IMG/VR virus record: IMGVR_UViG_3300021405_000017
Coordinates: 1-52,547 of that record
Length of the DNA stretch: 52,547 nt
Source: a virus
Lineage: Duplodnaviria; Caudoviricetes
Strand: one strand, 5' to 3'
A program made the position numbers and the translations under genes. Positions 13,482 through 46,385 of the stretch are shown here, in pieces; position 1 is the first letter of the stretch, and each line of letters starts with the position of its first letter. The notes beneath the pieces are model-generated. The model was not told the origin of the DNA. It searched no databases and was given only the letters and a program-made list of their open reading frames with translations.

Positions 13482-13977
13482 GCCGGCCCAGCCCCGCCTC
13501 GCCTTGCCAGATCAAGCCTAGTCACACCGCGCCTGGTCCAGCCTCGCCGGCCCCGCAAGCCGCGCCATGCCAGGCCACGCCTTGCCTCGCCAGGCCTCAC
13601 CATTCCGGCCGCGCCGAGCCCGGCCTTGCCTAGCCACGCCACGCCGCGCCAGACCCCGCCGCGCCGGCCTTGCCTTGCCTCGCCGGGCCTAGTCGCGCCC
13701 GGCCGCACCGAGCCTGGCCGAGCCCGGCCGTGCCGCGCCCCGCCGAGCCCTGCCTGCCTCGCCCCACCTCGCCAGGTCCAGCCTTGCCAGGCCTTGCCCC
13801 ACGCCGCACCTGCCTTGCCCTGCCTCGCCAAGTCGCGCCCGGCCTCGCCGGACCCAGCCCAGCCTGGCCACGCCTGCCTTGCCACGCCCAGCCTCACCGG
13901 GGCCGGCCGCGCCTTGTCTAGCCTAGCCATGCCTGGTCCGGCCGCGCCGTGCCGCGCCTGCCTTGCCTCGCCTCGTC
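13482..13977 (-). ncRNA. GGY-NN pentamer array 1 (about 7 putative guide units)
   Basis: Strict 5-nt periodicity (plus strand RCCNN, minus strand GGYNN) with 4-nt steps at 13482, 13546, 13604, 13663, 13752, 13808, 13872 and 13956. Intergenic, starting at the upstream gene's stop codon. RNA status inferred. Confidence 0.8.
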
Positions 13978-14280
13978 TCATACGGGCGAATCGAGCCGTT
14001 TGAACTCGCCTCGCCGTAGCTCGATGGCCGGGACACTCCGGATCTCGCTGCGCCGCGCCTTGATGACGAATTCGCGCCATTCTCGCCGCTGCTCCCGCTC
14101 TAAGCCGCGTACTAGGTCAGCCTGATATTTCTCCGACAACGCGCGCTTCACCCAAGCGTCGAACGGCAGCCGAGCCGCAGCTGCCGCCTCCTCGAACGCC
14201 TGCATGATCGGCGAGGCAAGGCGAATGTGGAGCGTCTTGCCGCCCACCTCGTCGTCATTGTCATTGATGGGTTCGTTCAT
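13978..14280 (-). CDS. Small hypothetical protein (possible RHH/HicB-like DNA-binding) between arrays 1 and 2
   Basis: AAGGAG RBS; TLHIRL...AAAAARLPFDAWVKRAL. Confidence 0.6.
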   Translation of the reverse strand: MNEPINDNDDEVGGKTLHIRLASPIMQAFEEAAAAARLPFDAWVKRALSEKYQADLVRGLEREQRREWREFVIKARRSEIRSVPAIELRRGEFKRLDSPV

Positions 14281-14301
14281 GACCCTCTCCTTTTCACTTT
14301 T

Positions 14302-15777
14302 GCCCGCCTTGCCTGCCTTGCCTTGCCGAGCCTTGTCGGACCCAGCCGGGACACGCCAAGCCTCGCCATGCAACGTCCCGCCGCGCCTGCCTTGCCATGT
14401 CGGGCCTAGCCGGGTCGGATCTTGCCGAACCCCGCCAAGCCTCGCCTCGCCCGGCCCGGTCAAGCCACGCCTGCCTTTGCCTTGCCATGCCTGGCCTTGC
14501 CCAGCCGCACCGTGCCGAACCCGGTCGGACCCGGCCAAGCCTGCCATGCCAGACCTCGCCTCGCCGCGCCTTGCCAAGCCTCGCCAAACCCGGCCATGTC
14601 GCATCCGGCCGCGCCTGCCTCGCCCCGCCTTGCCTCGCCGCGCCCTGCCCAGCCCGGCCAGGCCGAATCGTACCGGGTCTAGTCATGCCCCGCCGGCCTC
14701 GCCTTGCCCCGCCAGGCCCAGTCTCGGCTCGTCCTGCCTCGCCTAGTCCCGCCCAGTCGCGCCCGACCATGTCAGGCCGTGCCCGGTCCCGTCTTGCCGT
14801 GCCGCGCCTTGCCAGGCCTGCCTCGCCATGCCTCGCCAAGTCGCGCCTTGCCTCACCGCGTCTGGCCCGGCCTTGCCGCGCCAGGTCTCGCCGTGTCGCG
14901 CCTGCCTTGCCTTGCCTTGCCCGGCCCCGCCTCGCCGGGTCCCGCCATGCCTGCCTCGCCTCACCCCATCGTGCCGGGCCAAGGCGTGTCCCGACATGCC
15001 TCGGCATGCCAGGCCCGGCCCGGCCGGACCTCGCCTGCCTAGCCTCGCCCGGTCGCGCCGAGTCGAGCCTAGCCTCGCCGCGCCCCGCCGTACCGTGCCC
15101 GGCCGGGTCATGCCTGCCTCGCCCCGCCGCGCCAGCGCCATGCCAAGCCTTGCCGAGTCGCGCCTGGTCGTGCCTGGCCCGGCCAGGCCCAGCCTGGCCA
15201 TGCCTGCGTTGCCTTGCCTCATCAGGTCAGGCCATGCCTCGCCTCGCCCAGCCTCGCCTCGCCTCGCCTGTCTGGCCATGCTTCGCCTCGTCACATCATG
15301 CCGCGCCGGATCAAGCCTCGCCCGGTCCCGCCGTGCCGTGCCTGACCCCGCCTCATCAGGTCTGGCCATGCCTGCCTCGCCTCGCTGCGCCGGGGCTCGC
15401 CCGGCCAAGCCGGGTCGAGTCCCGCCTGGCCCCGCCTAGCCTGCCTTGCCGTGTCAGGCCTCGTCACGCCTCGCCGTGTCCGGCCCAGCCTAGTCTGGCC
15501 ATGCCTGCCGTGTCCGGCCCAAACCAAGCCTCGCCTTGCCGCGCCTTGCCTCGCCACGCCTGCCTTGCCCGGCCAGGCCAAGCCTTGTCACGTCGCACTG
15601 CATCCCGCCTCGCCTGCCTTGCCTGGCCTCGCCAGGTCTCGCCGCCCTTGTCCTGCCCAGCCTCGCCTGCCTTGTCAGGCCACGCCTAGCCGGACCGGGC
15701 CGGGCCTAGCCTTGCCTCGCCGCATCTGGCCCGGCTCTGTCATGCCAAGCCTGGCCTTGCCTGCCTTGCCGTGTCAG
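14302..15777 (-). ncRNA. GGY-NN pentamer array 2 (about 19 putative guide units)
   Basis: About 1.47 kb of pentamers. GGCAGGC-type junctions at 14311, 14385, 14469, 14539, 14613, 14692, 14816, 14900, 14949, 15033, 15112, 15202, 15266, 15370, 15439, 15503, 15558, 15612, 15665 and 15759. Confidence 0.8.
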
Positions 15778-16316
15778 GCGGCGGTTCGTGAGCCGCCGCC
15801 CTTGCCTTTGCCGCCTTTGCCGCCGCCGGCCTTGCCCGCACCTTTGCTCGCAGCCTTGGCGGCGCGGGCTCGTTCGGCGATGGTTTCGAGGTTGAGCAAC
15901 ATGGTGTCCAAGTCTGGACCGACGCCCAGGACGAGGGCGACCTTTCGCGCCCGCTCTATAGCGGCGGCGATGCGGTCAACCTCGTCCTCGAGGACTCGCA
16001 GCGCCCGCGCGCGCTGACCTTTGAACGAGGTCAATTCGCAAGAGGTCTGCGTTTTCGGCGCTCGATCGGGATCGACAATGTAGTAGGGCACTACGATGGT
16101 TTCGGTCTCCGTGATGACCTCAAACCGGACGTAACGGATCAGGGTGCGGGCCTGCTCGATCCAATGCTGTTGCGCCGCCTTTTTTACGTCCCATTCGAAG
16201 TCTTCATGGATTGGAGAGCCGGGAGGCCGAGCCGCTTCGACCACCTTCTCAGGCTCAAGACGCCCGCTGGAGTCTTCCAGCGAGCGAATAAAGGCGGCCT
16301 TGGCCGCCGACATCAT
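15774..16316 (-). CDS. Partner protein of the RAMP-like gene (function unknown)
   Basis: LEPEKVVEAARPPGSPIHEDFEWD..AAQQHWIEQARTLIR motif; ATGA-coupled to the RAMP-like gene; array 2 begins at its stop codon. Confidence 0.75.
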   Translation of the reverse strand: MMSAAKAAFIRSLEDSSGRLEPEKVVEAARPPGSPIHEDFEWDVKKAAQQHWIEQARTLIRYVRFEVITETETIVVPYYIVDPDRAPKTQTSCELTSFKGQRARALRVLEDEVDRIAAAIERARKVALVLGVGPDLDTMLLNLETIAERARAAKAASKGAGKAGGGKGGKGKGGGSRTAA

Positions 16317-17197
16317 TGCGACAGCCCCACCTCGTCGCCGCCGCCATTGCTCTTAGGCGGGCGCTTGCCGTTTGCGGCTTTCGGCGTCTTGCCCTTTGAC
16401 GCCTTGCCGCCCTCGCGCTGAGAGCTAGCCTCGCGCCGGATGATCTCGCTCTCGTACCACACCCACAATTCTTCGCTGTCGATATCGCTCGCCTCCGGGT
16501 TATCGTAGGCCGCCTGTTGCACCTTACGGCCGCCGTTCTTGACGATATCGAGCCAGCGCGGGTCACGCGCATCGACGACCTCCCAGCCGCCGTTGTTGAA
16601 GGTGCCCTTCTCTGTTCGCCCGTCGCCGATGCCGGTCACATCGCCGGCGTTCGACATCAAGTTGACGATCGCCCGCTCGGTCGTCAGCGTCTTGATGAAT
16701 TGGACGGTGAGTTTCACCGCCCATGTTTTGAACATCGCGCGGGTTCGAATGTCGGGCACGCGCTTCATGCCCTCAAGGCGGACCCAATCCATGTAGAGGT
16801 AGGGCTTGCCATAGACGTGGACCGTCTGGTCGACCACCTGCACCAGACAGCCGATCTCAGTCTTCGTTGCACCTGGCGTGCGGAGCGCCGCGGAACCGAG
16901 CGCCTTTTTGAAAGCGCCGGTAGGGAAGTGAAAAAGCGTAGGCGCGCTATCGTCGCGGCACCGATACATTGTGTCGCGGAATTCAGCGAGCGGGTCATGT
17001 TTCAAAATGACCTGCTTCTCGGCGTTGTTTTTAGCGCGCGACGGAAGCAACAGCTGCTGCTTCGCTTTCGCGCTCGGCCGATTCATCACCAGGGGCGCCG
17101 TGCCCAGAAGATGGAAGACAACGTAGCCTCGCTCGAAGCGCTTAAGCTCCGAGACCATCTCGGTGGTGTCGCGTGTTTTACTGGGTTTGGTAGCCAT
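16313..17197 (-). CDS. Stand-alone RAMP/Cas7(Csm3)-like RNA-binding protein (Vipr-like)
   Basis: N-terminal LLGTAPLVM (cf. RAMP TxSPLxIG), FHFPTGAFKKAL (cf. YIPGSSLKGAL) and C-terminal Gly-rich loop GIGDGRTEKGTFNNGGWEV. Flanked by pentamer arrays; AGGAGG RBS. Confidence 0.75.
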   Translation of the reverse strand: MATKPSKTRDTTEMVSELKRFERGYVVFHLLGTAPLVMNRPSAKAKQQLLLPSRAKNNAEKQVILKHDPLAEFRDTMYRCRDDSAPTLFHFPTGAFKKALGSAALRTPGATKTEIGCLVQVVDQTVHVYGKPYLYMDWVRLEGMKRVPDIRTRAMFKTWAVKLTVQFIKTLTTERAIVNLMSNAGDVTGIGDGRTEKGTFNNGGWEVVDARDPRWLDIVKNGGRKVQQAAYDNPEASDIDSEELWVWYESEIIRREASSQREGGKASKGKTPKAANGKRPPKSNGGGDEVGLSQ

Positions 17198-17252
17198 TCT
17201 CGTCTATGCTCCTCCTTTCGGAAAACGGCCTATCCGCTTTCCGTCGTCGCTT

Positions 17253-17279
17253 GGCCCGGGCGTCGTGAGCGCCCGGGCC
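17253..17279 (-). other. 10-bp perfect hairpin at the 3' end of array 3
   Basis: GGCCCGGGCG-7 nt-CGCCCGGGCC. Confidence 0.7.
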
Positions 17280-17299
17280 TTGCGTTTCGTTCGCGCTCA

Positions 17300-17939
17300 G
17301 CCTGCCGGCCGAGCCTTGCTTTGCCTCGCCATGCCGGGCCGTGCCACGCCGGGCCTGACCAGACCCAGCCCTGCCGAGCTGCGCCACGCCAAGTCGCGCC
17401 TGCCTCGCCCAGCCGGGCCGTGTCGGGCCTAGCCGCACCTCGCCCGGCCTCGCCAGGTCCGGCCGCGCCAAGCCTTGCCTGCGTCGCCGCGCCGTATCGC
17501 GCCGGACCGGGCCACGCCCCGCCAAGCCTCGGCCAGACAAGCCTCGCCAGGCCGCGCCTGCCTTGCCTCGCCATGCTGAGCCCAACCCCGCCAAGCCCCG
17601 CCGCGCCAGGTTCAGCCAGGTCCGGCCTCGCCTGCCTCGCCTTGCTCCGCCCCACCTCGCCGTGCCCCGTCACGCGTTGCCCGGTCGCGCCCAGCCGTGC
17701 CCCGTCTCGTCTAGCCATGCCTGCCTTGCCCCGCCGAGCCGGGTCTGGCCTTGCCCCGCCAAACCGCGCCACGCCAAGCCTGGCCTGACCCCGCCTGCGT
17801 CGCCTTGCCTCGCCTCGCCCGGCCAAGCCGCGCCCGGCCTCGCCATGTCGGGCTCAGCCCGGCCAGGCCTCGCCGGTCATGCCGCCCCTTATCGAGCCCA
17901 ACCCCGCCATGTCTGGCCAAACCGCGCCTGCCTTGCCTC
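17300..17939 (-). ncRNA. GGY-NN pentamer array 3 (about 8 putative guide units)
   Basis: Junctions at 17300, 17398, 17477, 17556, 17630, 17719, 17793, 17872 and 17926; spacings mostly 5n+4 (54-98 nt). Confidence 0.8.
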
Positions 17940-18966
17940 AAAGGAGGTTCTCCTCTGATTTGGCCGCAGAGGAGCGGCGAGGCGGTTCACCACCGTCCTC
18001 TGCGGCCGCATCCGGCGCGGGTGGTTGTGGCCCGGCGGGAGGGGGATTCTCCGCCGTTTGAGCCGCGCCGGAATCTAAGTTCGGGGATAGGTCAGTAGCG
18101 CCGGCTGCCCCGGCGAGCGCGTTCAGCTTCGAGGACAGGCCTTTCAGGGCAGGGCCTCGGTCGGCTTTCGGTTCTGGAAACAGCGTCTCGACTGTCGACT
18201 CGCCAGACTTGATCGCCTGCCGCATCGCGGTCAGCGTAATCAGATCGTCGAGGCCGACGTCCTCGATCCCCGGAACCTCAAGCGCGTTGAAGACGCGCTC
18301 GGGGGTAACGCCCCAGGCCGCGAAAGACCTGACCGCTACGTCCCGGCGCTCAGAGAGCGTCTTGACGTCGCCGGCGATCACCCGCTCGACCGACTGATAG
18401 GCTCGCCGCCAGATCGCCTTGGGCACGCCGCGCATGATCGCGTTGCGAAGCGCGATCGAACACGCGGCCTGGCCGGTCACCATGATTAAATCGTCGTCGT
18501 AAATCCGGCCATGCTTGTCGAAGATACGCCGGCGCACCCGTGACGTGGTGACGCGGCCCGTCTCCAAATCGTGGAAGACGCCCTCGGCCTCGACGAACTT
18601 TTCAATCCGATCGATGTGGATGACGCGGGAGGCGTCGCGGCAATTGCCCCATTGCGAGGCGACGATCTCGGCGAAACGTATGGACGGACCGCGAATCGCC
18701 TTTTTGCCGCGAGGCAGCGCATAGACGCATTCTTCCGCGGTCTCGTCGTCGAGCGTCGCCAGGCCCAGGATGTCGCTCATCACCTTCTTTTGCGATCGTG
18801 GATAGGCGTGCGCGGTATTGACCTGCTGATCGACCTCGGCGCGGCTGAGCGCGATCGCCAGGCTCATTTGGCTTTGCGCCGGACCGGCGTCGATCGTCGC
18901 CAGCGGGCCGAAGTCGTCCGTCTGTTCGAGATCCGTTTCGACGGGCTTAGCCATTGGCTTTTTCAT
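17938..18966 (-). CDS. Putative single-strand annealing/recombination protein
   Basis: DQQVNTAHAYPRS...YALPRG...GPSIRFAE..ASQWGN; adjacent to the YqaJ exonuclease. Function inferred from context. Confidence 0.6.
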   Translation of the reverse strand: MKKPMAKPVETDLEQTDDFGPLATIDAGPAQSQMSLAIALSRAEVDQQVNTAHAYPRSQKKVMSDILGLATLDDETAEECVYALPRGKKAIRGPSIRFAEIVASQWGNCRDASRVIHIDRIEKFVEAEGVFHDLETGRVTTSRVRRRIFDKHGRIYDDDLIMVTGQAACSIALRNAIMRGVPKAIWRRAYQSVERVIAGDVKTLSERRDVAVRSFAAWGVTPERVFNALEVPGIEDVGLDDLITLTAMRQAIKSGESTVETLFPEPKADRGPALKGLSSKLNALAGAAGATDLSPNLDSGAAQTAENPPPAGPQPPAPDAAAEDGGEPPRRSSAAKSEENLL

Positions 18967-19912
18967 GTTGCGCTGCCTTGATTGAGACTTGTCGCCAGAT
19001 GGACGCCTTCACCTGGTAGGCGCCGCGGCGGCGGGTCGGGGCGACGATCAGGCGCCCGTCAGGCAGCCGGCCGCGCTCGGCGAGCCCGAGCTTGGCGACA
19101 ATTTCCGTGTCGATGATTTTGCGCTCTTTGGCCGCCGCGGCTCCGTCATCCTCGCGCGCCTTGAACGCCTCGCGTTGCGTAACAAGGTCGAGGATGCGGT
19201 TGTCGGCGCGTAGGTCGACTTCGGTGTCTTCCGCCTCAGCGTAGAGGCGCGCGATTACATCGGCGTCGTCAGCGTAATGGGGTGGATAGGAATCGCCCTC
19301 CGCGACGCGGCGCCAGAAGTCGGCGGTGAGCTCGCGTAGTTTCACCATGATCGCTGACTCGATCGGTATCTCCTCGACGTGGGCCGTCCACTCCGACATT
19401 TCCAATACCGCCACCGCGGCCCATGTGGCGCCGGTCAGAGAGGCCTCAACAATCGCCTGGACGGCGATCCAAAGCGGGACTTCAATTTCGCCACCCGCCT
19501 GCCAAGTGCGGCGGAAGGCCTCGCCCGCGGTTTTCACCTGCAGAACGCCCAACCCTTCGATGTCAGGACAGGTGACGAAGGCGTCGGGCGTGGCGCCGAT
19601 CCGGGCCACTGGATCGCGGTAGTAATGATCGCCAGGAACGATCGTCCAATCAGGGTAGGTTTCCGCGACCATGTTGAGGACGACGTGCTCGAGGTCGCGC
19701 CCGCGCCGCATCGCCGGCGTCTCATGGACGCGCTCTTCGACGCGCCCGCTCTTAACGGCCCACAACTCGAAGGCGGATTTGTAGGGATGGATCGCATCGG
19801 CGAGCAAAGCCGCGATTTCAGATGCGGTGACATCCTGCCGACGCCATTTGAGCCACTCGGCGTGATCGGTGATCGGCCGCTTTTCGATTGTCTGCTCGGC
19901 GAACGCGTTCAT
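18947..19912 (-). CDS. YqaJ/lambda-exonuclease family viral recombinase nuclease
   Basis: EWLKWRR..VTASE, RGRDLE, IGATPDA, VLQVKT, AVQ motifs. Confidence 0.85.
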   Translation of the reverse strand: MNAFAEQTIEKRPITDHAEWLKWRRQDVTASEIAALLADAIHPYKSAFELWAVKSGRVEERVHETPAMRRGRDLEHVVLNMVAETYPDWTIVPGDHYYRDPVARIGATPDAFVTCPDIEGLGVLQVKTAGEAFRRTWQAGGEIEVPLWIAVQAIVEASLTGATWAAVAVLEMSEWTAHVEEIPIESAIMVKLRELTADFWRRVAEGDSYPPHYADDADVIARLYAEAEDTEVDLRADNRILDLVTQREAFKAREDDGAAAAKERKIIDTEIVAKLGLAERGRLPDGRLIVAPTRRRGAYQVKASIWRQVSIKAAQHEKANG

Positions 19913-20178
19913 GCGTTCCCCGTCTGGTCAGGCTGGCCTTCGAACCGCGCGATTTGCTCCTTGAGCATCGTCACGATGTCCGCGCGGCTGGCGCCGTTGC
20001 TGATGTAATTCACGCGCCCGTCATCGGCGCCGAAAGGAAAGACCATCAAGATGAAGCCGACCTTGCGCTCCTTGCCCTTAGCTACGCCGTTGAACGCCTC
20101 GTCAAGCGCGCCGGCGACCGCGTTCATCGTATCGCGGTAGGTCTCCTCGATCGGCGCGTCGCCCAGCCGCTCAGTCAT
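19909..20178 (-). CDS. Conserved phage hypothetical protein
   Basis: GFILMVFPFG..GRVNYISNG.RADIV.MLKE. Confidence 0.7.
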   Translation of the reverse strand: MTERLGDAPIEETYRDTMNAVAGALDEAFNGVAKGKERKVGFILMVFPFGADDGRVNYISNGASRADIVTMLKEQIARFEGQPDQTGNA

Positions 20179-22454: not shown

Positions 22455-22832
22455 CTAGGGCGCCTTGGCGCCGACCAGCGCTTCGAGCGCCGTGAAATAA
22501 CGCTCGCGTTCTTCGGGCGACAGGCCGGCGAGCAGAGCGTCGGCGGACCTTGCTTCCGGCGGGGTAAAGAATTGCGCCGGGGTAATATTGAGCGCCCGCA
22601 TCAATCGGAATTGAACTAGTAGACTTAGGGTTCGCTCGCCGCGTTCATAGCGGGAGACCTCGCCTTTGCTTGTCTTGAGCGCTTCGGCGAGATCTTCTTG
22701 CGTCATACCGCGTTTCTGTCGCCATTCCTTCAAATAATGACGAAAGATCTCGATCTTCTCGGCCTCACCCGAGGACGAGCCGATATAGACCTTGGTCCGC
22801 CGACGTGGCTTGCGCGGTTTTGAGGTTGCCAT
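22455..22832 (-). CDS. CI-like XRE helix-turn-helix repressor
   Basis: LKEWRQKRGMTQEDLAEAL..SKGEVSRYERGER; divergent from the Cro-like gene; operator GTTGCCATAAAGGCAAC (22825-22841) overlaps its start. Confidence 0.85.
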   Translation of the reverse strand: MATSKPRKPRRRTKVYIGSSSGEAEKIEIFRHYLKEWRQKRGMTQEDLAEALKTSKGEVSRYERGERTLSLLVQFRLMRALNITPAQFFTPPEARSADALLAGLSPEERERYFTALEALVGAKAP

Positions 22833-22945
22833 AAAGGCAACTTTACCACGAGTCGCAGCCAGTAGTTAAGCCACCTAGGCCTGTAAAAACCCGACAAAGT
22901 TGTCTAGGTGAAATTACCCAGAAGCGGCGCGGGGCCCATTGCCCC

Positions 22946-22980
22946 TTGACGGCTTGTTGCCTCTAAAGCAACCTAGGATA
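22946..22980 (+). promoter_or_regulatory. P_R-like promoter with operator; probably leaderless mRNA
   Basis: TTGACG-N17-CAACCT then ATG at 22980; operator GTTGCCTCTAAAGCAAC at 22956-22972; no SD sequence. Confidence 0.6.
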
Positions 22981-23234
22981 TGGCCAAGTTTCATCGCGCT
23001 GAGCTTAAGGACGCCCGCGTTCAGGCTGGCCTCACTCAAAGCCAGCTCGCGTTGCACATCGGCATGACCAAGAACTTCGTCACGGAAGTCGAGAACGGCC
23101 ATCGCAATCCTGGCTATCGCACCATGATCGCGTGGACGCGGGCGCTCGGGAAGTATGGCTCGCTTGAATTGTTCAGGCAGATCAGCCCGAAAACCGCATC
23201 CGGAAAGAAAGCCTCAGCCGCCGGGGTGGCCTGA
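22980..23234 (+). CDS. Cro-like XRE HTH regulator
   Basis: LKDARVQAGLTQSQLA..IGMTKNFVTEVENG..NP. Confidence 0.85.
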   Translation: MAKFHRAELKDARVQAGLTQSQLALHIGMTKNFVTEVENGHRNPGYRTMIAWTRALGKYGSLELFRQISPKTASGKKASAAGVA

Positions 23235-23658: not shown

Positions 23659-24053
23659 GCTTTGATCTCCTCGAGGCGCTCACCGAACAGGCGGCCAAGC
23701 GCGAGGGCGTGCCGCGGGCCGAAGCCCGGCCGGCGGTCGAAGAGGCCGCGGAGGTTCTGGAATGGCGGATAGGCCGCGAGCCGCCGCGAGGCCGCGTGTT
23801 GCGATTGGCGGCGCTCCTGATCCATCCGCACGCGCGCCGCAAGTACCGCAACGTCCTGGTTGAGATCGACGAGATCGAGCTCGACGGCGATGACGGCGGC
23901 AAGATCCCGAGCATCGCCGTCACCTGCACCAAGTGCCGCGAAAGCGTCGAGATTTACGGCCGGCACGAGGCCTCGATCATCCGCGGCTGCGCCACTCTGG
24001 CCGACGACTGCGGCGAGTGGAATTTCTACGTCTACGACGAGGCGGTCGCGTGA
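23655..24053 (+). CDS. Hypothetical protein (Cys-containing)
   Basis: ATGA-coupled; CTKC...C...C. Confidence 0.55.
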   Translation: MSFDLLEALTEQAAKREGVPRAEARPAVEEAAEVLEWRIGREPPRGRVLRLAALLIHPHARRKYRNVLVEIDEIELDGDDGGKIPSIAVTCTKCRESVEIYGRHEASIIRGCATLADDCGEWNFYVYDEAVA

Positions 24054-25054
24054 CGGATGAACCCGAGTCCGACGACAAGCGCCAGAGAGGAAACGTCATG
24101 CCATTCGTCAGACCTAAGGAGGACGCGCGTTCATTCGAAACCACGCAGATGGAGACCAAGCTCTTAAGCCTTGGTGAAATGTACTCTTGGACCTTGCCGG
24201 CGTTTCAGCGCGATGAAGTGCAGACGAAAAAGGTCATTGAGTTTGCCGAGGAACTCAGAACCAACGGCGGCGTAGTGGCCGGCGTGATCCTGCTCGGGAT
24301 GCTGCGAGCGGCCGAGGAGTCTGTTGTTTATCTGGTTGACGGACAGCAGCGCCGCAATGCGTGTCAAATATCCGGTCTGTCCGAATTCATCGCTGACGTC
24401 TGCCTCAAACGCTACGACTCGATGGCGGACATGGCGGAAGATTTCAAGCGCGTGAACGCCCGGCTCGTTCCCTTCAAGCCGGACGATTTACTACGCGCCT
24501 GCGAGCTGTCGCATCAGTTTCTAAAGGAGTTGCGCGACCGTTGTCCCTTCATCGGATACGGCAACATTCGCCGATATGAGGATCGGTCGCCGACCTTGAG
24601 CGTCTCGATCGCGCTCAAATGCTGGTTCGGATCAGGCCAACCGACTCCAGGCGCGCAAGGTCAGGCCGTCGGGCTCCTCGATCAGCTCGACGACATTCAA
24701 TCCCAGAATCTGTCGGTCTTTCTGATCATGGCGCACAAAGCATGGGGAAGCGATCGGCAATACGGCCGCCTGTGGGCGAACCTCAATCTGACGATGTGCA
24801 TGTACTTGTATCGCAAGCTGGTGCTCGACCCGAGCAATCGGCGCGCGCCTTTGCCGAAGGAGATGTTCGGCAAAGCTCTCATGTCGGTTTCCGCCAACGG
24901 CCCTTATATCGACTGGCTGTCAGGCCGCAGCATTAGCGAGCGCGATCGTTCGCCCTGCTACAAGCGCTTGAAGAGCATCTTCGTTGAGCGGCTGACGCAG
25001 GAATACAACGGCAAGCTCTTTAAGCTGCCAAGTCCGGATTGGGCATCCAGTTGA
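24050..25054 (+). CDS. ParB-superfamily DGQQR/DUF262-like domain protein
   Basis: LPAFQR and YLVDGQQR motifs. Confidence 0.7.
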   Translation: MTDEPESDDKRQRGNVMPFVRPKEDARSFETTQMETKLLSLGEMYSWTLPAFQRDEVQTKKVIEFAEELRTNGGVVAGVILLGMLRAAEESVVYLVDGQQRRNACQISGLSEFIADVCLKRYDSMADMAEDFKRVNARLVPFKPDDLLRACELSHQFLKELRDRCPFIGYGNIRRYEDRSPTLSVSIALKCWFGSGQPTPGAQGQAVGLLDQLDDIQSQNLSVFLIMAHKAWGSDRQYGRLWANLNLTMCMYLYRKLVLDPSNRRAPLPKEMFGKALMSVSANGPYIDWLSGRSISERDRSPCYKRLKSIFVERLTQEYNGKLFKLPSPDWASS

Positions 25055-25800: not shown

Positions 25801-27132
25801 ATGACCGAACTGACTCGCTACCAGGTTACCGAGCGCGCGCTGGCGTCCGCCAAGACGATCAATGAAGTGAGCGAAGTGTGCAGCTATTACGACGGCATCG
25901 CTAAAGCAGCGCGCGGCCTTGAAGACCGGGAGGCCGAGATCGAGGCGGCCGAGCTTTCCATCCGGGCAAAACGCAAGCTCGGTCAATTGATCATCGCCGC
26001 GGGCAAGGCGGGCGCGCTGGCGAAGGGAGGCGGCGATCAGCGGCCAAACCACCGGGTTAAAAATAACCCAGTGACGCCGACCCTTGCCAGCGCTCACGTC
26101 GACAAGAACCTCGCCAACAGCGCGCGTAAGCTCGGCAAGCTTGAGCCTGAGGAATTCGATCGCGGGTTTGAGGCATGGCGCAAATCGATCAACGGCGGCG
26201 GCGAGCGCATTTCAGCCAAGCTGCCAGAGGTTCCGCGGGAAGCGCGCGGACCATCTAAGCGACGCGCCGATAACATCTCGCTTAAGACCTGGGAGCAGAT
26301 GAGCGCGGAAGAGCGGCGCGAGTGCCTCGACCCGGCGAACTATCCCAGCGATGCTCCCATGAATAAGCAAGACGGCCCTGGCATCGAGTGGGCGCAGAAA
26401 AGCTGGAACCCGATTGTCGGCTGCAAGCATGACTGCCCCTATTGCTACGCGCGCGATATCGCGACCCGCTATCCCGACGCGTTCCCGCACGGCTTTGAGC
26501 CTGCGTTCCGCCCTTACATGCTCAACGCCCCGCGCAACACGCCGCTCCCGAAGGAAGCGATGTTCGACGCGCGGTTCAGCCATGTCTTCGCGGGGTCGAT
26601 GACGGATTGGTTTGGAAGGTGGGTGCCGCCCGAGTGGATCGAGGCGGTGCTCGCGACCATGCGCGACAATCAGATTTGGCAATTTCTATGCTTGACGAAA
26701 TTCCCGAAGCGCATGGCTGAATTTGATCTGCCGCCGAACATGTGGGCGGGCACCACGGTCGATCTCCAGGCGCGCGTCGCCAACGCAGAAGCGGCCTTTG
26801 CAAAGCTCGCGGCGAAAAACCCAACCGGCGTTCGCTGGCTTTCGATCGAGCCCCTACTCGAACCGCTCAAGTTCAAACAGCTTGATCTATTCAAGTGGGT
26901 GGTCATCGGCGGCGCTTCCAAATCCAGCAAGACGCCAGCGTTCCAGCCGCCGTTTCCGTGGATCATTGATATCTACGCCCAAGCCAAGGCTGCGGGCTGT
27001 CAAGTCTACATGAAGACGAATCTCCTCGGCAATCGGGTGCTCGAATTGCCCTTCGACGCGCCGATCAAGAAAGACCCGACAGAAGCGGAGAATGTCTTTC
27101 ATTATCTGGGGAGGGCCAAAGATGCCGAGTAG
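25801..27132 (+). CDS. DUF5131 (Gp37/Gp68) radical-SAM-like protein with N-terminal extension
   Basis: IEWAQKSWNPIVGCKHDCPYCYA, SMTDWF, LTKFP, LSIEPLL, WVVIGGAS. Confidence 0.85.
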   Translation: MTELTRYQVTERALASAKTINEVSEVCSYYDGIAKAARGLEDREAEIEAAELSIRAKRKLGQLIIAAGKAGALAKGGGDQRPNHRVKNNPVTPTLASAHVDKNLANSARKLGKLEPEEFDRGFEAWRKSINGGGERISAKLPEVPREARGPSKRRADNISLKTWEQMSAEERRECLDPANYPSDAPMNKQDGPGIEWAQKSWNPIVGCKHDCPYCYARDIATRYPDAFPHGFEPAFRPYMLNAPRNTPLPKEAMFDARFSHVFAGSMTDWFGRWVPPEWIEAVLATMRDNQIWQFLCLTKFPKRMAEFDLPPNMWAGTTVDLQARVANAEAAFAKLAAKNPTGVRWLSIEPLLEPLKFKQLDLFKWVVIGGASKSSKTPAFQPPFPWIIDIYAQAKAAGCQVYMKTNLLGNRVLELPFDAPIKKDPTEAENVFHYLGRAKDAE

Positions 27133-28867: not shown

Positions 28868-30300
28868 TGCCAGAGCGACCGCCCTATTTCACCGAGGCTC
28901 AATGGCAGGAGCACCTCCGCCGGACAGGACAGGCGCCGGCCGGCGAGGAGCAGAAGCCGCCGCCGCCCGACAACGGCCAGCCTCCGGGCGGCTTCAATGA
29001 GAGGGTGGTCCAATTCGACCAGGCTCGAAAGCGCAAGCCCAAGCCGCCGCCGACGCCGCCGCCGGGCGGCTGGCCCGAATGGGTGGGACGTCTACGGCGC
29101 GACGATCGCGGCCGAGTCATCCCCGACCTCGCCAACGTCCTGATCGCCCTGCGCGGCGAGGACAAGCTCGCCGAGGCCTGCGGCTTCGACGAGATGCTAC
29201 AGCACTCGATGGTGTTGAAGGAATGGCCGCGCCTGCCCGACGCCAAGCCGATCAAGCCGCCGCCGCACGAGACCGATGATGATGACATTAGCCGGATCCA
29301 GGAGTGGTTGCAGCGCATGGGCCTGCCCCGGATCGGGCGCGAGATCGTCGGCCAGGCGGTCGAGGTCTTCGCCCGCGAGCGCAGCTTTCACCCGGTGCGC
29401 GATTGGCTCAACGGCCTCAGCTGGGACGGCGTACGCCGAATCGACCGCTGGCTGTTCGTCTATTTCGGCGCGGAAGCCGAGGATGATGACGCGATTGAAT
29501 ACGTCAGCGCGATCGGCAAGATGTTCCTCATCGCCATGGTGGCGCGGGTGTTTCGACCCGGCTGCCAAGCCGATTACATGCTCGTGCTCGAGGGCGACCA
29601 GGGCATCCTCAAATCAAGCGCCTGCCGCGCGCTCGCCGGCCAATGGTTCTCGGACAGCTTGCCGGATGACATTCAGGGCAAGGACGCCCGCCAGCACTTG
29701 CGCGGCAAATGGCTGATTGAAGTCTCCGAGCTTGCCGCCTTTTCCAAGGCCGAGACCGAGGCGCTGAAAGCCTTCATCACCCGGCGCGAGGAACGCTACC
29801 GTCCGCCCTTCGGCCGGCATGACGTGGTCGAAAAGCGGCAATGCCTGTTCATCGGCACCACCAACGAGGAGAGCTACATCAAGGACCAGACCGGCGGGCG
29901 CCGCTATTGGCCGGTCAAATGCCTGTCGATCGACGTCGAGGGCCTCGCCGGCGTCCGCGACCAGTTATTCGCCGAGGCCTTGATCCGGTTCCGCATGGGT
30001 GACCGCTGGTGGCCGACCGCCGCGGACGAGGCCAGGTTCTTCAAGCCGCAACAGGAGAGACGGGAGGAAGATGATCCGTGGGTTCCGCCCGTGGCGACCT
30101 GGCAGCAGGGCTTCCCATCGGACAAGGTGACGGTGTCGCAAGTTGCCCGCGAATGTTTGGGGTTTGACGGCAATTCCCGCATTGACCCGCGAGTACAGCA
30201 GCGGATCGCTAAGATACTCAAGAGGTTAGGTTGGGCGCAACTGCCGAGGACGATGCACGGCCGCTTTTACGCCCGGCCGCGAGGCGACGACGACGCATGA
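28867..30300 (+). CDS. VirE/VapE-family SF3 helicase (replication)
   Basis: FHPVRDWL, Walker A LEGDQGILKSS, Walker B LIEVSEL, FIGTTN, DQTGGRRYWPV. Confidence 0.9.
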   Translation: MPERPPYFTEAQWQEHLRRTGQAPAGEEQKPPPPDNGQPPGGFNERVVQFDQARKRKPKPPPTPPPGGWPEWVGRLRRDDRGRVIPDLANVLIALRGEDKLAEACGFDEMLQHSMVLKEWPRLPDAKPIKPPPHETDDDDISRIQEWLQRMGLPRIGREIVGQAVEVFARERSFHPVRDWLNGLSWDGVRRIDRWLFVYFGAEAEDDDAIEYVSAIGKMFLIAMVARVFRPGCQADYMLVLEGDQGILKSSACRALAGQWFSDSLPDDIQGKDARQHLRGKWLIEVSELAAFSKAETEALKAFITRREERYRPPFGRHDVVEKRQCLFIGTTNEESYIKDQTGGRRYWPVKCLSIDVEGLAGVRDQLFAEALIRFRMGDRWWPTAADEARFFKPQQERREEDDPWVPPVATWQQGFPSDKVTVSQVARECLGFDGNSRIDPRVQQRIAKILKRLGWAQLPRTMHGRFYARPRGDDDA

Positions 30301-39618: not shown

Positions 39619-39641
39619 AAAAAAAAGGGCCTCGGAGGCCC
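39619..39641 (-). terminator. Intrinsic terminator
   Basis: GGGCCT-ccg-AGGCCC hairpin followed by U8 on the minus strand. Confidence 0.75.
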
Positions 39642-41193: not shown

Positions 41194-41420
41194 CTAGACG
41201 GCTCGGCCCCGGCGGCCCGCCTCGGCCAAGCGCGCCTTGAGGGCCTGATCGGCCTCGGCCCGCGTCCTGTGCGCCGAGATCACGCCGAGGCCCTCGACCA
41301 CCGCCCAGATCTTGCCGAACGGCTTTACCTGCATCGGGTCGTGCGCATGCGGGTTCGGCCCCGGCGGCATCGTTTCCTTTCGAGCCGGCATGTTTGTGAC
41401 CCCGATATGATGCGCCGTAG

Positions 41421-41873
41421 CTATCGCGCGCCGGCAAGCCGCCCGGGTGGCAGCTCCACCGTCATCTGCCGGCCGAGCAGATTGATCAGGACGAGCTCAC
41501 GCTCGCGCGCGCTCATCCCGTTATAAACGCCGGCGAGAGCGCCGACCTGAACCCGATCGCCCTGACGTAAGACCGGCGGCGGCGGCGGCTCCGGCAGCCG
41601 CACCAGGCCGAGCGAATCCATCTGGCTCCGCCACAACGCGATCTCCCGGTCAGGACATTTCGCCGGCGCCTCGCCGAACTTGATCAGCCCGAGCACGCCC
41701 AGCGTCCGATCGACGATCCGCCAGCGGTCATGAATGTGGACGAACAGATAGCCGGGAAACAGCGGCCCGCCGCTGGTTTTGGGAACGAAGATCTCGAAGC
41801 CGGCCGTCTCCAGGCGCTCGCCGGCGAAGCTCTCTCGCCTGGTCAAGGTGCGCGCCACGGCCCAATAGGACAT
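41421..41873 (-). CDS. NusG-family transcription antiterminator
   Basis: YWAVART...E..A...L...GFEIFVP...PLFPGYLFV...GV.G; C-terminal KOW-like GDRVQV...LLGR. Confidence 0.85.
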   Translation of the reverse strand: MSYWAVARTLTRRESFAGERLETAGFEIFVPKTSGGPLFPGYLFVHIHDRWRIVDRTLGVLGLIKFGEAPAKCPDREIALWRSQMDSLGLVRLPEPPPPPVLRQGDRVQVGALAGVYNGMSARERELVLINLLGRQMTVELPPGRLAGAR

Positions 41874-42529
41874 GGGCGCAGGAAACAAGCGATGAAACCC
41901 TCAAATGTCAATGGCTTAGGGCGGCGCGCCCTCGGGCGTGAACGCGGCTTTAGCGCCCGCGCTCCCTTTGTTCGAGCGCCTCGAGCCGATTGATCATTAT
42001 GGCGACTTGCTTGCTCAGGCGCTCGTTGTCCCGGAGGACCGTCCACAAGCCTGCTTTGACGAGGCGCCCCACCATCCACACCGCGTAAATCAAGACGCCG
42101 TTCATCGCCACCAGCGCTACGGTCTGCACTACGTCGAGAAAACTGTTCGGCGTCCAGTTCATTTCCCCTCCCAGGAGCGCTGCGGCCAATAGCGCAGCGC
42201 GGCCTCAACGTGCTCACGTTGGCGCCGGTTCCACCCGATCATCTCCGAGGCTGAGGTCTTGACGCTAGGACGTCCCGCCCTATGGCGTCAACGGTCAGAA
42301 ATGAGGAGAGCGACTCGCCACGGGAGACGAGCCGCCTTCACCCTCTTGGAACGCTGGACACGTCTTGAGGACGCTATCGCCAGCCTACCGGCGGAACATC
42401 GGTCAAAGTTGGGCCTTGAGCAACTCCAAAAACACTAGAATTTGACGACTCTGCCGGGGCAGCGCTACACATCGCGCCCGGAAGTTGGCGGAGGAAGCAT
42501 CTTTTCCCCGATGCGCGGAGCGTTTCCCG

Positions 42530-42964
42530 ATGGCGGCGCCCCTCTCTGATCCCGCGCAAACCCACCATTGGAGGTTGTGGTACGGCCTTCAACGCTGGAA
42601 GAAGCGCGCTCACCATCAGCTCAGAACCGAGCCGCTGTGCGCTCAGTGCCTCGCTCAAGGTCGCGTCACCGCAGCCACCATCGCGGATCATAACCCGCCT
42701 CACCAAGGCGTCTGGAATGATTTCCGCCTCGGCCCCCTGCAATCGCTGTGCGCCGATTGCCACAAGCGCAAATGGGCCGATGACCGCCACGGCTATCATT
42801 GCGACATCGGCGACGACGGCTTCCCGCTCGATCCGCGTCACCCTTTCAACAGTAAGCGGACCTCTGACGGCGGACCGGCAGCAGGCGAGCTTAGGGAGAG
42901 GCAACCCGGTCCGCCTTCGGCGAGCCTCTCCCACCCGCTCAACCGCGTAAGGGAGCAGACATGA
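42530..42964 (+). CDS. Terminase-associated HNH endonuclease
   Basis: EPLCAQC...ATIADH.PPH.G...LQSLCADCH. Confidence 0.85.
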   Translation: MAAPLSDPAQTHHWRLWYGLQRWKKRAHHQLRTEPLCAQCLAQGRVTAATIADHNPPHQGVWNDFRLGPLQSLCADCHKRKWADDRHGYHCDIGDDGFPLDPRHPFNSKRTSDGGPAAGELRERQPGPPSASLSHPLNRVREQT

Positions 42965-43191
42965 AACCCATCGCCCTCGCGATCGCCCTCGGCCTCATCG
43001 TCGGCGCTAGCACTGAGGCCAACGCTGTTGTCTGTGCTCGCGGCGTCTATCACGCGGGCTGCGCCGGTCCTCGAGGCGCGGTCGGCGTCCACGGCGCTGC
43101 GGTGCGCCCCTATGGCGCGGTCGCTCGGCCCGTCGCTCGGCCCTACGGCGCCGCCTGCGTCTGGCGCGCCGGCGTCCGCATCTGCCGATGA
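42961..43191 (+). CDS. Small secreted Cys-containing protein
   Basis: Signal peptide; VCARGVYHAGCAGPRG. Confidence 0.65.
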   Translation: MKPIALAIALGLIVGASTEANAVVCARGVYHAGCAGPRGAVGVHGAAVRPYGAVARPVARPYGAACVWRAGVRICR

Positions 43192-43451
43192 CAGCCGATC
43201 CCCATTCTCCGCCGGCCCCTAGCCTAGCCGGCGTTCGCAAGGCCGAAATCGACGTCGGTCCTGAGTTCTTCCGGGCGACTCTCCAGACTGTGACGCCGCC
43301 CAACACGCTGACGATGGCGGCCTCGACCGGCGCCGCGAAGATCGTCATCCATCTCGACACTGGCGAGGTTGACCTTCTCGGGCTTGAGCCAAGCGAGGGC
43401 GCCCGGCTCTTTTGGAAGATCGTCGAGGAGCAATTCGGGAAACGAGGATGA
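43188..43451 (+). CDS. Hypothetical protein
   Basis: ATGA-coupled on both sides. Confidence 0.55.
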   Translation: MTADPHSPPAPSLAGVRKAEIDVGPEFFRATLQTVTPPNTLTMAASTGAAKIVIHLDTGEVDLLGLEPSEGARLFWKIVEEQFGKRG

Positions 43452-43948
43452 GAAAAGGCCCGGCGCCGCTTCCGACCCATCTCAAGCTGTTGCGCGGCAA
43501 CCCGGGGCAGCGGGCGCTCAGCAAGGGCGAGCCGATGCCGATGCAGCCGCCCGACCCGCCCGACCCGCCGGGCGATCTGACCGGCTACGCCAGGGAGGAA
43601 TGGAACCGGATCATCGTCGAGGTCTTTCGGCTTCGGCTGGTGACCAGCATCGATATCCAGGTCCTGGCCGCCTATTGCGACGCCTACGCCCGCTGGCGCA
43701 ACGCGCGTGAGACCTTAGCCGCGATGGCCGAGCGCGATCCCATAACCCGCGGCCAGATCGTCAAGACCCAATCCGGTGGGGCCGCGCCTAATCCGTTGGT
43801 GTTCATGGCCGCCGCCGCAGCCCGAGACATGGTCCGCTTTGCCGCTGAGTTTGGATTATCCCCCGCCGCCCGTACCCGCATTAACGCGATTGACGCCATC
43901 GGCGGCACGCCGAGCAAGTTCGCGGGGCTCCTCGCCGGAGTTGATTAG
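43448..43948 (+). CDS. terS: Terminase small subunit, P27 family
   Basis: P.PTHLKLLRGNPG.R, LAAYC..Y, NP.V, EFGLSPAAR. Confidence 0.9.
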   Translation: MRKGPAPLPTHLKLLRGNPGQRALSKGEPMPMQPPDPPDPPGDLTGYAREEWNRIIVEVFRLRLVTSIDIQVLAAYCDAYARWRNARETLAAMAERDPITRGQIVKTQSGGAAPNPLVFMAAAAARDMVRFAAEFGLSPAARTRINAIDAIGGTPSKFAGLLAGVD

Positions 43949-45512
43949 ACGCAGCGCGCGCGGGAAGCTTCGCGCGGACGAAGTCATCCGGTTCATCGAG
44001 GCTTTAACCGTTCCCAAGGGGCACGGGCAGGGCCACCCGTTCGTGCTGATGCCGTGGGAGAAGCGGTTCATCCGCGACGTCTATGAGCCGCATTGGAACA
44101 AGAACGACAAGCGGGTGGTGCGCCGGGCCATCCTGTCGATCGCCCGCAAGAACGGCAAGAGCGCACTGACCGCGGCCTTGTGCCTCACCCACCTGATTGG
44201 GCCGGAAGCGATCCCCAACGGCGAGGTGTATAGCGCCGCCAATGATCTCGACCAGGCGGCGATCATCTTCCGGTTCGCCCAACAGATGGTGGAGCTCGAG
44301 CCGGACCTGGCGCAGAAGATCGACCTGGTTCCGTCGACCAAGACGATGGTCGCCCGGCCGACCGGCTCAGTGTTCCGCGCCGTCTCGCGCGAGTCTTCGA
44401 CCAAGCACGGCTATTCGCCGTCGATGGTAGTCTATGACGAGCTGGCGCAGGCCAAGAGCCGCGCCCTCTATGACGTGTTCGACACCGCCTTCGGCGCTCG
44501 CGAGGAGCCGCTGTTCGTCGCCATCTCGACGCAGAGCAACGATCCCGAGCACGTCTTGTCGAAGCTGATCGACGACGGGATCGCCGGCGCCGATCCCTCG
44601 ATCATCTGCCATTTGTACGCCGCCGATGAGGGCTGCGACCTGGCTGACGAAAGCCAATGGCGAGCGGCCAATCCGGCGCTCGGCGTGTTCCGCGACCGCG
44701 AAGACCTGGCGACGGCGATCCGCAAGGCGCAGCGGATGCCGGCGGAAGAGCCGAAGGTTCGCAATTTGTTCCTCAATCAGCGGGTGTCGCCGTTGGCCCC
44801 CTTGATCTCCCGCGCCGAGTGGTTGGATTGCGTCGGCCCGGCCGAGCTGACCCCCGGCGAGGAGGTCTATCTCGGCCTTGACCTCGCGAGCGTGGTCGAC
44901 CTGGCGGCGCTGGTCATGGTCTCGGCCATCGATCCGGCCCGGGTCGCGCCGCTATTCTGGAAACCCCGCGAGCTGCTCGCCGATCAATCCCGGCGCGATT
45001 TCGGCGCCGGGAATAATCGTTACCAAGAGTGGGCCGACGCCGGCCTCCTGCGCTTAAGCCCGGGGCGCTCGATTGATCCGGCGGTGATCGCGATGGCGAT
45101 CGGCGAGCTGGATCAGCGCTACCGCATCCGCGGCCTCGCCTATGACCGCTGGCGCATCAACGACCTCTTGCGAGCGTTCGATAATATCGGGCTGCGCGCG
45201 TTCAAAGACGGGGATAAGGGCGACGGCCTGCGCCTGGTGCCTTGGGGCCAGGGGTTTAAGGACATGGGCCCGGCGATCGACGCCCTCGAGGTGGCGATCT
45301 TCGAGCATCGGCTCATTCACCCGAGCCATCCGATCCTGAATTGGAACATGGCGAACGCCATCGCGACCATGGACCCGAGCGGCAATCGGAAATTAGACAA
45401 GAACGCAGCCCGATTTAGAATTGACGGCAGCGTCGCGCTCGCGATGGCGATGGGGCTTCGCTCGCGCGACCGCACCAAGCCGCCGATCGATGTTTTCGCG
45501 CTGATCGGATGA
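43941..45512 (+). CDS. terL: Terminase large subunit
   Basis: Walker A SIARKNGKS, VVYDEL, ISTQ, YLGLDLA, AYDRW, RIDGSVA. Start codon uncertain. Confidence 0.95.
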   Translation: MIRRSARGKLRADEVIRFIEALTVPKGHGQGHPFVLMPWEKRFIRDVYEPHWNKNDKRVVRRAILSIARKNGKSALTAALCLTHLIGPEAIPNGEVYSAANDLDQAAIIFRFAQQMVELEPDLAQKIDLVPSTKTMVARPTGSVFRAVSRESSTKHGYSPSMVVYDELAQAKSRALYDVFDTAFGAREEPLFVAISTQSNDPEHVLSKLIDDGIAGADPSIICHLYAADEGCDLADESQWRAANPALGVFRDREDLATAIRKAQRMPAEEPKVRNLFLNQRVSPLAPLISRAEWLDCVGPAELTPGEEVYLGLDLASVVDLAALVMVSAIDPARVAPLFWKPRELLADQSRRDFGAGNNRYQEWADAGLLRLSPGRSIDPAVIAMAIGELDQRYRIRGLAYDRWRINDLLRAFDNIGLRAFKDGDKGDGLRLVPWGQGFKDMGPAIDALEVAIFEHRLIHPSHPILNWNMANAIATMDPSGNRKLDKNAARFRIDGSVALAMAMGLRSRDRTKPPIDVFALIG

Positions 45513-45630
45513 AAGATGACGACGGCGAGGACTTCCCGCCCACGCAACACCCGGTTCGAGAATTCATAACAGCCAGCCTTTTCGTTCTCGGCATCGTCGC
45601 CTTCGTTTGTTGGCTGCTTTGGAGGTGGAT

Positions 45631-45861
45631 ATGAGCCTCGCTGGAATCCTTTTAGGCCTCATCAATGTCGCGATCGTCGTCGCGATCTTGATGCTGATCG
45701 GCGCGATCGTCGTTTGGTTCCTTCAGTGGATCTTCAGCGTCGCCGTGCCGGCCAACGTGCAGAAGCTCTACATCGGCATCGTCGCGCTGATCGCCCTCTA
45801 CATGATCGTGGCGCTCTTGCTCGGCTTGCCGGTCGTCCACCTGATCGGCCGATACGACTAA
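45631..45861 (+). CDS. Small membrane protein (2 TM)
   Basis: GGAGG RBS; hydrophobic. Confidence 0.7.
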   Translation: MSLAGILLGLINVAIVVAILMLIGAIVVWFLQWIFSVAVPANVQKLYIGIVALIALYMIVALLLGLPVVHLIGRYD

Positions 45862-45866
45862 AGGTC

Positions 45867-45983
45867 GGCGGCGGCCCGCGCTAAACGGACCGCCGCCCCT
45901 TGCCTTGCCCAGCCCTGCCGCGCCTGGCCCCACCGGACCGGGCCGAGCCGTGCCTTACCACGCAACGCCAAGCTTGCTTGGCG
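45867..45983 (-). ncRNA. Solo GGY-NN unit (array 5) with its own promoter and 3' hairpin
   Basis: 14 pentamers at 45902-45971. Upstream TTGAGC-N18-TAGGTT (46020-45991); downstream hairpin 45867-45897. Confidence 0.75.
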
Positions 45984-46034
45984 CGCCCTTAACCTAGTTC
46001 GATCAGCCATCTTAGCTCAAGCCAAGAGTCCCGA

Positions 46035-46385
46035 ATGCTACCGGCGACGTACAATCTCGATCTGTATAGAGGCGACACGCTAAGGTTACAGGTAAAGTTG
46101 TGGAACAACGAGGAGCGTGATGATCCGGCCGATTTGGATGGCGTGATCGCAGCGAGCCAGTTTCGTGTACGGCCCGACGCTGAGCCGATGGTCGAGATGG
46201 CGTGCGCGATAACTTTGCCGAACGTCGTCGATCTAACCCTCAGTTCAGACGCGAGCCGGATGTTACCAAAAAAGGGCGTGTGGGATCTGGAATTGCGTTT
46301 CCCAGGCGGGGACGTATTTACACCGCTAGCCGGGAAAATGACGCTGAAACCTGACGTAACGCTACCGCCAGGCGCCGCGCCCTGA
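46035..46385 (+). CDS. BppU-like structural adaptor domain protein
   Basis: [10 protein letters not shown]...DL.G..AASQ.R...GVWDLEL...T.LAG...PDVT. Confidence 0.7.

Follow-up and report, generated by a model that had tools for sequence, protein, structure and literature searches.

A VIPR locus with large staggered guide arrays in a temperate soil phage, and the fit of its guides to the genes of the carrier and of other phages

VIPR (Viral Interference Programmable Repeat) systems have been known only since 2026, and detailed analyses of natural loci are still few. Here we analysed a stretch of phage DNA of 52,547 bases, called the window throughout, which is the complete linear IMG/VR record IMGVR_UViG_3300021405_000017 (CheckV completeness estimate 52%). 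The window is a temperate soil phage carrying a VIPR system, and its locus belongs to the known VIPR kind, with unusually large staggered arrays. It is likely that the guides of this system are aimed at other phages, that the carrier itself is spared and that one lone guide, A4, is allele-specific. An earlier note on this DNA had proposed that the phage avoids its own guides, as the matches to resident genes appeared to be mismatched throughout. As a general claim, self-avoidance is not supported statistically and is partly tautological; the idea of guides directed at siblings, with the resident allele mismatched, is supported in one case, that of A4.

VIPR is the subject of two bioRxiv preprints (10.64898/2026.04.26.720920 and 10.64898/2026.04.26.720927). 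According to the first preprint, a phage-encoded RAMP protein, Vipr, is directed against competing phages by vrRNAs of alternating GGY and NN; double-stranded DNA is read by the NN pairs, and one base, usually that at the wobble position, is skipped. The same preprint describes VIPR as transcriptional repression that works on either strand and is abolished when NN pairing is perturbed, and its Methods state that 0 guides match their own contig at ≥80% NN match. The abstract of the second preprint gives the structural mechanism as a Vipr filament with a triplex R-loop; no statement on mismatch tolerance was found in its text, where the word "mismatch" occurs 0 times.

The window encodes a 294-aa Cas7-like RAMP protein, the Vipr of this locus (coordinates of all features are collected in Table 1). 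In a 25-sequence Vipr alignment G185, G189, R194 and G203, which lie in a glycine-rich loop, are invariant. The AlphaFold model of the protein has a pLDDT of 83.4 and a pTM of 0.77, with segments of lower confidence at ~41-70 and ~141-150. All Foldseek matches listed with E ≤0.001 are CRISPR RAMP-containing complexes (Csm3, Cas7, gRAMP; best E 1.3e-4, probability 1.00), and VIA-align gave Z of 9.3-8.0 to Cmr, Csm3 and Cas7 chains over residues ~20-211. Model and alignment together thus give the RAMP (RRM) core with glycine-rich loop that is expected of a Vipr protein. The stop of vipr is overlapped by a 180-aa gene, the candidate accessory gene vap, so that the locus has the minimal two-gene layout of vipr and vap. 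For the vap model no Foldseek match with E ≤0.001 was obtained, only weak winged-helix-like rows with E above 0.5. When IMG/VR was searched with a pattern of eight GCCNN units, at least 120 contigs were found, including low-GC phages in which the arrays stand out. Relatives of the 294-aa protein are encoded in 36 and relatives of the 180-aa protein in 22 of the 120 array-selected loci listed, in several of them side by side. Vipr relatives also occur in cultured actinophages, where they are annotated as hypothetical (27-33% identity, tblastn E 1e-5 to 4e-15); examples are gene 51 of Mycobacterium phage Saal (NC_023580.1) and gene 39 of Gordonia phage UmaThurman (NC_031249.1).

Around these genes and at one distant site the window carries ~560 degenerate pentamer units in four arrays, A1 to A4, which read NNGCC on the plus strand and GGYNN on the minus strand. 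A dynamic-programming parse with the flanks included yielded 105, 302, 138 and 19 units in A1, A2, A3 and A4, among them 71, 194, 88 and 11 exact NNGCC units (353/545 across A1-A3). Most variant units preserve purine-pyrimidine-C (R-Y-C). The irregular units are mostly 4-mers, with 8, 21, 8 and 1 of them in the four arrays, and splitting the arrays at these 4-mers resulted in 36 runs with a total of 490 units, 32 of the runs having at least 8 units. In RNA sense the runs are mostly 8-20 units long, tend to end in GGCGA GGCAA and are set apart by GGCA and a subsequent GGC, a one-base overlap. These overlaps fit the "staggered arrays" named in the legend of fig. S18 of the preprint. All genes adjoining A1-A3 lie on the minus strand (those for the integrase, the 100-aa, 180-aa and 294-aa proteins, phrog_3657 and a YqaJ/RecE-type exonuclease); the transcribed array sense would therefore be GGYNN. 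Tandem YNNGG (GGY/NN) repeats are thus present on the vipr strand on both sides of vipr and vap, as in VIPR. A different layout was observed in two other loci, L002:652-1200 and L120:6243-6743, in which guide blocks of 12-14 pentamers alternate, much like spacers and repeats, with a conserved 25-55 nt element; these may be the ribozyme-interspersed or tailed array forms named in the VIPR preprint.

The guides find significant matches in other phages, and only when they are read with one skipped base. Relatives of the resident VirE-type helicase were fetched from IMG/VR, metagenomes and genomes, and in total the target search covered ~430 fetched loci. In 50 helicase-centred IMG/VR loci (745 kb) the skip-1 reading gave scores of 23, 21 and 21, compared with 14-15 for other skips and 13-17 for 40 shuffles. 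A second set of 102 loci (868 kb) yielded 4 guides with scores of ≥16, against a mean of 0.17 in 60 shuffles, and other skips reached at most 14. Over three locus sets the skip-1 maxima were 23, 21 and 29, compared with 13-18 for skip 0/2/3 and 13-18 for the shuffles. NN falls on codon positions 1-2 in the external targets, with the skipped base on the wobble position of coding sequences of other phages, and the wobble-skipping guides that the earlier note had postulated are thereby borne out. The organism titles of the genome matches are Alphaproteobacteria (Bradyrhizobium, Agrobacterium, Rhizobium, Acetobacteraceae and Roseiarcus).

The guide at 15273-15372 scores 33/40 on IQLEGQKxGRELPGIVD, a conserved motif of an AAA_24 ATPase, and reaches 35/40 in one (L303) of 80 additional homologue loci; no homologue of this ATPase was found in the window. 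An Agrobacterium larrymoorei prophage has a helicase that guide 13815-13874 fits at 22/24; the homologous site of the resident helicase scores 13/24. Guide 15672-15761 fits another locus (L259) at 27/36 and the homologous resident site at 24/36, and this resident site is also its best match in the window, so some in-window "matches" are echoes of conserved motifs. Together with the A4 allele described below, the absent ATPase and the two helicase sites agree with the idea of the earlier note that resident genes differ from the guides; the in-window matches taken as a set do not, being at chance level. A further run, the 8 units at 13562-13601, reads DL(D/E)NVLIA where the resident helicase has DLANVLIA. 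In 120 protein homologues of the helicase the motif was found 45 times, 6 of them as DLDNVLIA, and none of 125 nucleotide helicase homologues gave a 16/16 match. A sibling-directed reading of this segment is plausible but unproven.

Every run was also compared with the window itself, in an exhaustive ungapped search of both strands on all diagonals, with the arrays masked and the 1-nt-skip rule applied. No perfect self-target and no full-length self-match was found for any run in this search. The best full-length NN identity per run was 0.50-0.75 in 31/32 runs. The exception is the 8-unit run 13562-13601, which fits the resident helicase motif at 15/16 in the wobble-skipping phase, and save for this run no self-match reached ≥80% over the full length. 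The absence of self-matches at ≥80% NN in the preprint is the same negative control as this result. The earlier note is therefore right that nothing matches perfectly, but its claim that all resident matches carry at least 3 mismatches is wrong, as the 8-unit run shows. That all matches are imperfect at codon positions 1-2 is true, but by construction, as a guide in that phase reads only positions 1-2.

The best local score in the window (+1/-2 scoring) was 14, and 29/100 unit-order shuffles reached 14 or more. Six matches scored ≥11, compared with a mean of 9.3 (standard deviation 3.7) in 100 shuffles, and skips 0, 2 and 3 gave a maximum of 12 each, with 6, 7 and 7 matches scoring ≥11. Scoring with +1/-1 led to the same picture. 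The mean best full-length NN identity of the 32 runs was 0.653, compared with 0.646 (standard deviation 0.006) in 30 shuffles. The in-window near-matches as a set are indistinguishable from chance, and most of them are chance or the echo of a conserved motif. The terS match (IIVEV) of the earlier note probably corresponds to a score-11 partial match of guide 14699-14818 at ~43570-43614, which is at chance level. By simple arithmetic with uniform base composition, only ~1e-8 perfect 12-unit matches are expected by chance in the window, and the absence of perfect self-matches is therefore no evidence of avoidance. Local excess divergence, which the earlier note had expected around the matched sites, was not found either: the resident gene at the A4 site differs from a close homologue at 3/13 codons, and the resident match at the helicase sites is typical of the homologue spread or towards its lower end. 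Without such divergence the strong form of self-avoidance fails by the note's own standard.

The top in-window match belongs to A4, the lone array ~28 kb away from the others, which lies ~300-330 bases upstream of its own match site in the gene 46035-46385 (phrog_1084). Seven consecutive units match perfectly (14/14) in the wobble-skipping phase, and over the length of A4 the match is 19/32. At the four mismatched codons the resident gene has GAA TTG CGT TTC (ELRF), while A4 decodes to Q-L-A-W. The resident E is non-consensus here, as most homologues have Q, and the resident Leu codon is TTG where the guide has CT; the first-position synonymous swap and the non-consensus residue that the earlier note had described for its matches are thus real at this site. 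Among 48 non-self protein homologues, P0124 (74-75% identical) reads QLAW and P0122 reads QLAF. QLAW fits A4 at ≥7/8 positions, which random 4-unit guides reach in 47/20000 cases. Over 13 units the predicted match is 23-25/26 for P0124 and 22-24/26 for P0122, compared with the actual 19/26 of the resident gene, and shuffled A4 guide cores reach 23/26 in 0/5000 trials. Resident gene and P0124 differ at the 3/13 target codons mentioned above, compared with ~25% across the protein as a whole. Among 78 loci from IMG/VR with distant homologues (≤55% identity) the three best skip-1 matches of all guides are those of A4 at the homologous site, with up to 22/32; no homologue of gene 46035-46385 above 55% identity was found in IMG/VR. 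No promoter-like site was found near A4, and no other guide in the window has a neighbour match like that of A4. As A4 fits the rival allele of the gene next to it and not the resident one, its position suggests that close relatives are excluded in an allele-specific manner. We tentatively suggest, as one possibility and with more doubt than conviction, that A4 and its neighbour form a cassette of guide plus immune allele, which would silence relatives bearing QLAW while the own ELRF allele escapes. VIPR would then serve as an allele-specific exclusion device between sibling phages, with the large arrays as a broad library against the replication modules of unrelated phages of the same host.

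The main alternative is pure chance, in which every in-window near-match is coincidental, including that of A4 and the 15/16 helicase match, and no pressure for self-avoidance acts on the carrier, since foreign-derived guides simply do not match it. The score distributions in the window are indeed those of shuffled guides, the helicase residue D that the 8-unit run would correct is the second commonest at a variable position (DLDNVLIA in 6/45), and none of the 125 nucleotide homologues reaches 16/16. We nevertheless consider this reading rather unlikely in view of A4: its match lies ~330 bases from the guide, random 16-unit guides scored ≥14 anywhere in the window in 12/1500 cases but within 1 kb of A4 in 0/1500, A4 picks the same site in distant homologues, and a real allele exactly corrects its four mismatched codons. 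Alternatively, the partial match of seven units could let Vipr with A4 bind gene 46035-46385 weakly and tune its expression, the imperfection being the designed state. Guide and site are adjacent, 14 contiguous bases are matched and, according to the preprint, VIPR represses transcription on either strand. Such autoregulation is nevertheless improbable, since A4 fits another allele far better than the resident one, perturbed NN pairing abolished silencing in the preprint and no other guide has such a neighbour match. That the arrays are not guides at all but a protein-coding or structural repeat, for example pentapeptide-like open reading frames in all frames or a protein-binding DNA lattice, is hardly credible: long open reading frames do traverse them on both strands and the strong 5-bp period could phase a DNA-binding protein, but the arrays adjoin a RAMP gene, significant foreign matches appear only with the skip-1 NN reading, and no reading frame survives the 4-mers, one-base slips that recur every 8-20 units, for which reason a coding reading was rejected.

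We therefore prefer the reading of a VIPR-bearing phage whose guides are directed at other phages. Several points weigh against it. No guide was seen to match an external target perfectly, the best match being 35/40, and only ~4-5/32 guides have a candidate target. Guide 15273-15372 has AC where all six AAA_24 targets shown (L303, L281, L294, L347, L282 and L133) have an AA Lys codon; Lys is invariant at this position in the six-sequence AAA_24 alignment, and the guide also has GC where most have GG (Gly). Either some guides, such as this one, may have decayed, or a certain number of mismatches may be tolerated. The searched sets were chosen by homology to the helicase, AAA_24 or phrog_1084, which biases the placement of the matches. 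In the case of A4 the "nearby" criterion was picked post hoc, after the match had been seen, and the target allele is known from protein only, so the match counts are predicted, including that for the Leu codon (CTN/TTG). When 50,697 phage records were searched with Vipr by tblastn, 33 were listed (Mycobacterium, Gordonia and one cyanophage); SUSP1, which like X1U2U4 has a published Vipr protein, was not among them. Finally, we infer the transcription, the processing sites and the strand of the arrays.

The comparison with sibling phages gives a similarly divided result for the arms race among siblings that the earlier note had suggested. A4 agrees with it, but on the three most closely related siblings (G001-G003, 133 kb) the guides of the window reached no more than 14, compared with 12-17 in shuffles, which is nothing above chance. 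In the opposite direction, 301 guide runs from 105 other loci, including G001, were searched against the window, with a skip-1 maximum of 14, 14-15 for other skips and no match above that. The sequence of G001 begins inside a similar array. The sibling G002 (92% complete) is 70-85% identical over much of the genome but lacks Vipr and the whole 11.7-19.9 kb block. G002 joins the homologues of window 11010-11676 and 19906-20168 directly, so the 8.2-kb block 11676-19906, with the integrase, a small gene at 13054-13266, the VIPR locus, the phrog_3657 gene and the YqaJ exonuclease, is an accessory module. At the nucleotide level, neither G001 nor G002 has an equivalent of the segment 45862-47470, a variable region that comprises A4, gene 46035-46385 and the first part of a collagen-like tail fibre gene.

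In the mechanism we propose, Vipr would coat the minus-strand array transcripts and hold each GGY triplet, and each NN would read two bases of double-stranded DNA with every third base skipped. The staggered arrays would provide ~32 guides of 8-30 units joined by one-base overlaps (GGCA/GGC), presumably separated by processing. These guides would be aimed at other phages, above all at conserved protein motifs in replication genes, and the resident genome would be spared in two ways: the target is absent, as for the AAA_24 ATPase, or it differs at the read positions, as in the VirE-type helicase. Array anatomy, RAMP fold, skip-1 matches and their statistics come from the present analysis; ribonucleoprotein formation and silencing are taken from the two VIPR preprints, and we infer the staggered processing, the A4 target allele at the DNA level and any selection for avoidance.

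Some phages encode CRISPR arrays or mini-arrays against their competitors; these are likewise mobile-element systems that use RNA guides against rivals and not for host defence, but they differ from VIPR in guide chemistry and protein. With the Cas7 backbone proteins of class 1 CRISPR-Cas (Csm3, Cmr4, type I/IV Cas7) the Vipr of the window shares the single RRM-based RAMP fold with glycine-rich loop, and also guide bases that, as far as the VIPR reading in the preprint applies, are periodically excluded from pairing. In contrast to CRISPR-Cas, the guides have a period of 5 of which 2 bases are read, instead of a period of 6 with 5 read bases, and the system is phage-encoded. Tandem-repeat output contained no repeat-spacer array and no cas family was found among the ~33 window proteins scanned, so that a CRISPR array with cas operon is absent from both scans. 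The likeness to VIPR as described in the preprint is close: a phage-borne RAMP protein and a small accessory gene are flanked by GGY/NN pentamer arrays, the guides are read with a 1-nt skip on the wobble base, the targets lie in other phages with no strong self-match, and successive guides overlap by one base as in the fig. S18 legend. Compared with the SUSP1 locus of the preprint, the window has ~32 putative guides in 2.7 kb instead of four vrRNAs. It also differs from the VIPR described there in that no long invariant structured tail lies between the guides, only a short conserved end (GGCGA GGCAA GGCA), in that an extra lone vrRNA is located 28 kb away beside a gene whose rival allele fits, and in that the targets are replication genes (AAA_24 ATPase, VirE-type helicase) and not lysis-lysogeny regulators.

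Table 1. Positions of the VIPR components, matched sites and neighbouring genes in the window.
Feature	Position	Strand	Remarks
Integrase	11904-13070	-	Family scan
vrRNA array A1	13470-13985	-	7 runs of 8-17 GGYNN units, separated by 4-mers
Small gene, 100 aa	13978-14280	-	Between A1 and A2; without family match; ribbon-helix-helix-like as a reading of the sequence only
vrRNA array A2	14290-15775	-	~300 units, 19 runs; contains the AAA_24-fitting guide 15273-15372
vap (candidate vipr-accessory gene)	15774-16316	-	180 aa, phrog_15946; adjoins vipr in other array loci, e.g. L017, L063
vipr (Cas7-like RAMP protein)	16313-17197	-	294 aa, phrog_4652; glycine-rich loop near residues 185-203
vrRNA array A3	17260-17935	-	9 runs: 8 of 10-19 units and a 4-unit run at the array edge
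Resident helicase motif DLANVLIA	29125-29147	+	15/16 with run 13562-13601
Resident helicase site	29767-29819	+	Homologous to the external match of guide 15672-15761; resident match 24/36
Resident helicase site	30001-30036	+	Homologous to the external target of guide 13815-13874; resident match 13/24
terS site (…YAREEWNRII…)	43570-43614	+	Score-11 partial match to guide 14699-14818; chance level
Lone vrRNA gene A4	45866-45975	-	Pentamer array ~45897-45975; ~14 guide units (45900-45975), then a GC-rich hairpin (45866-45896) in RNA sense
A4-matched site in gene 46035-46385	46287-46324	+	phrog_1084; seven perfect units 46302-46321; four mismatched codons 46290-46301

Besides the integrase, protein family scans of the window identified a repressor/Cro-like pair at 22455-23234, and the window further encodes the VirE-type helicase, a methyltransferase, terS, terL, tail fibre genes and head genes. 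A single long open reading frame at 50130-52547, which continues past the window end, joins families of the head-maturation protease and the major head protein (phrog_80, phrog_617). The early rightward operon contains, after the Cro-like gene and before the methyltransferase, a weak match to GmrSD_N that stays under the Pfam threshold (E 2.4e-6) and a DUF5131 protein, at 23933-25054 and 25801-27132. No Rfam match at gathering scores and no tRNA by ARAGORN was found in the window, and the YqaJ exonuclease as sole bait yielded 0 related loci. The same phage is present as contigs in two soil DNA runs. In these runs a stretch of ~55 bp at 11840-11894 has a contig depth of 308 and 132, compared with ~10, and many divergent continuations; it may represent an attP core whose sequence also occurs in a conserved host gene, e.g. 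at the end of a tRNA. Two copies of the 12-bp direct repeat GTTTTCTAAACC are located nearby at 11772-11796.

To the VIPR loci described so far the window adds a very large staggered array of ~32 guides together with natural targets in replication genes of alphaproteobacterial prophages. It also adds a negative result, in that near-matches to the carrier's own genes are mostly chance and cannot be taken for avoidance, and one testable case of a guide next to a resistant allele of its own target. If the A4 case is true, it would provide a simple system for measuring the number and kind of NN mismatches that protect a phage from its own guides, including the first-position synonymous change CTN/TTG.

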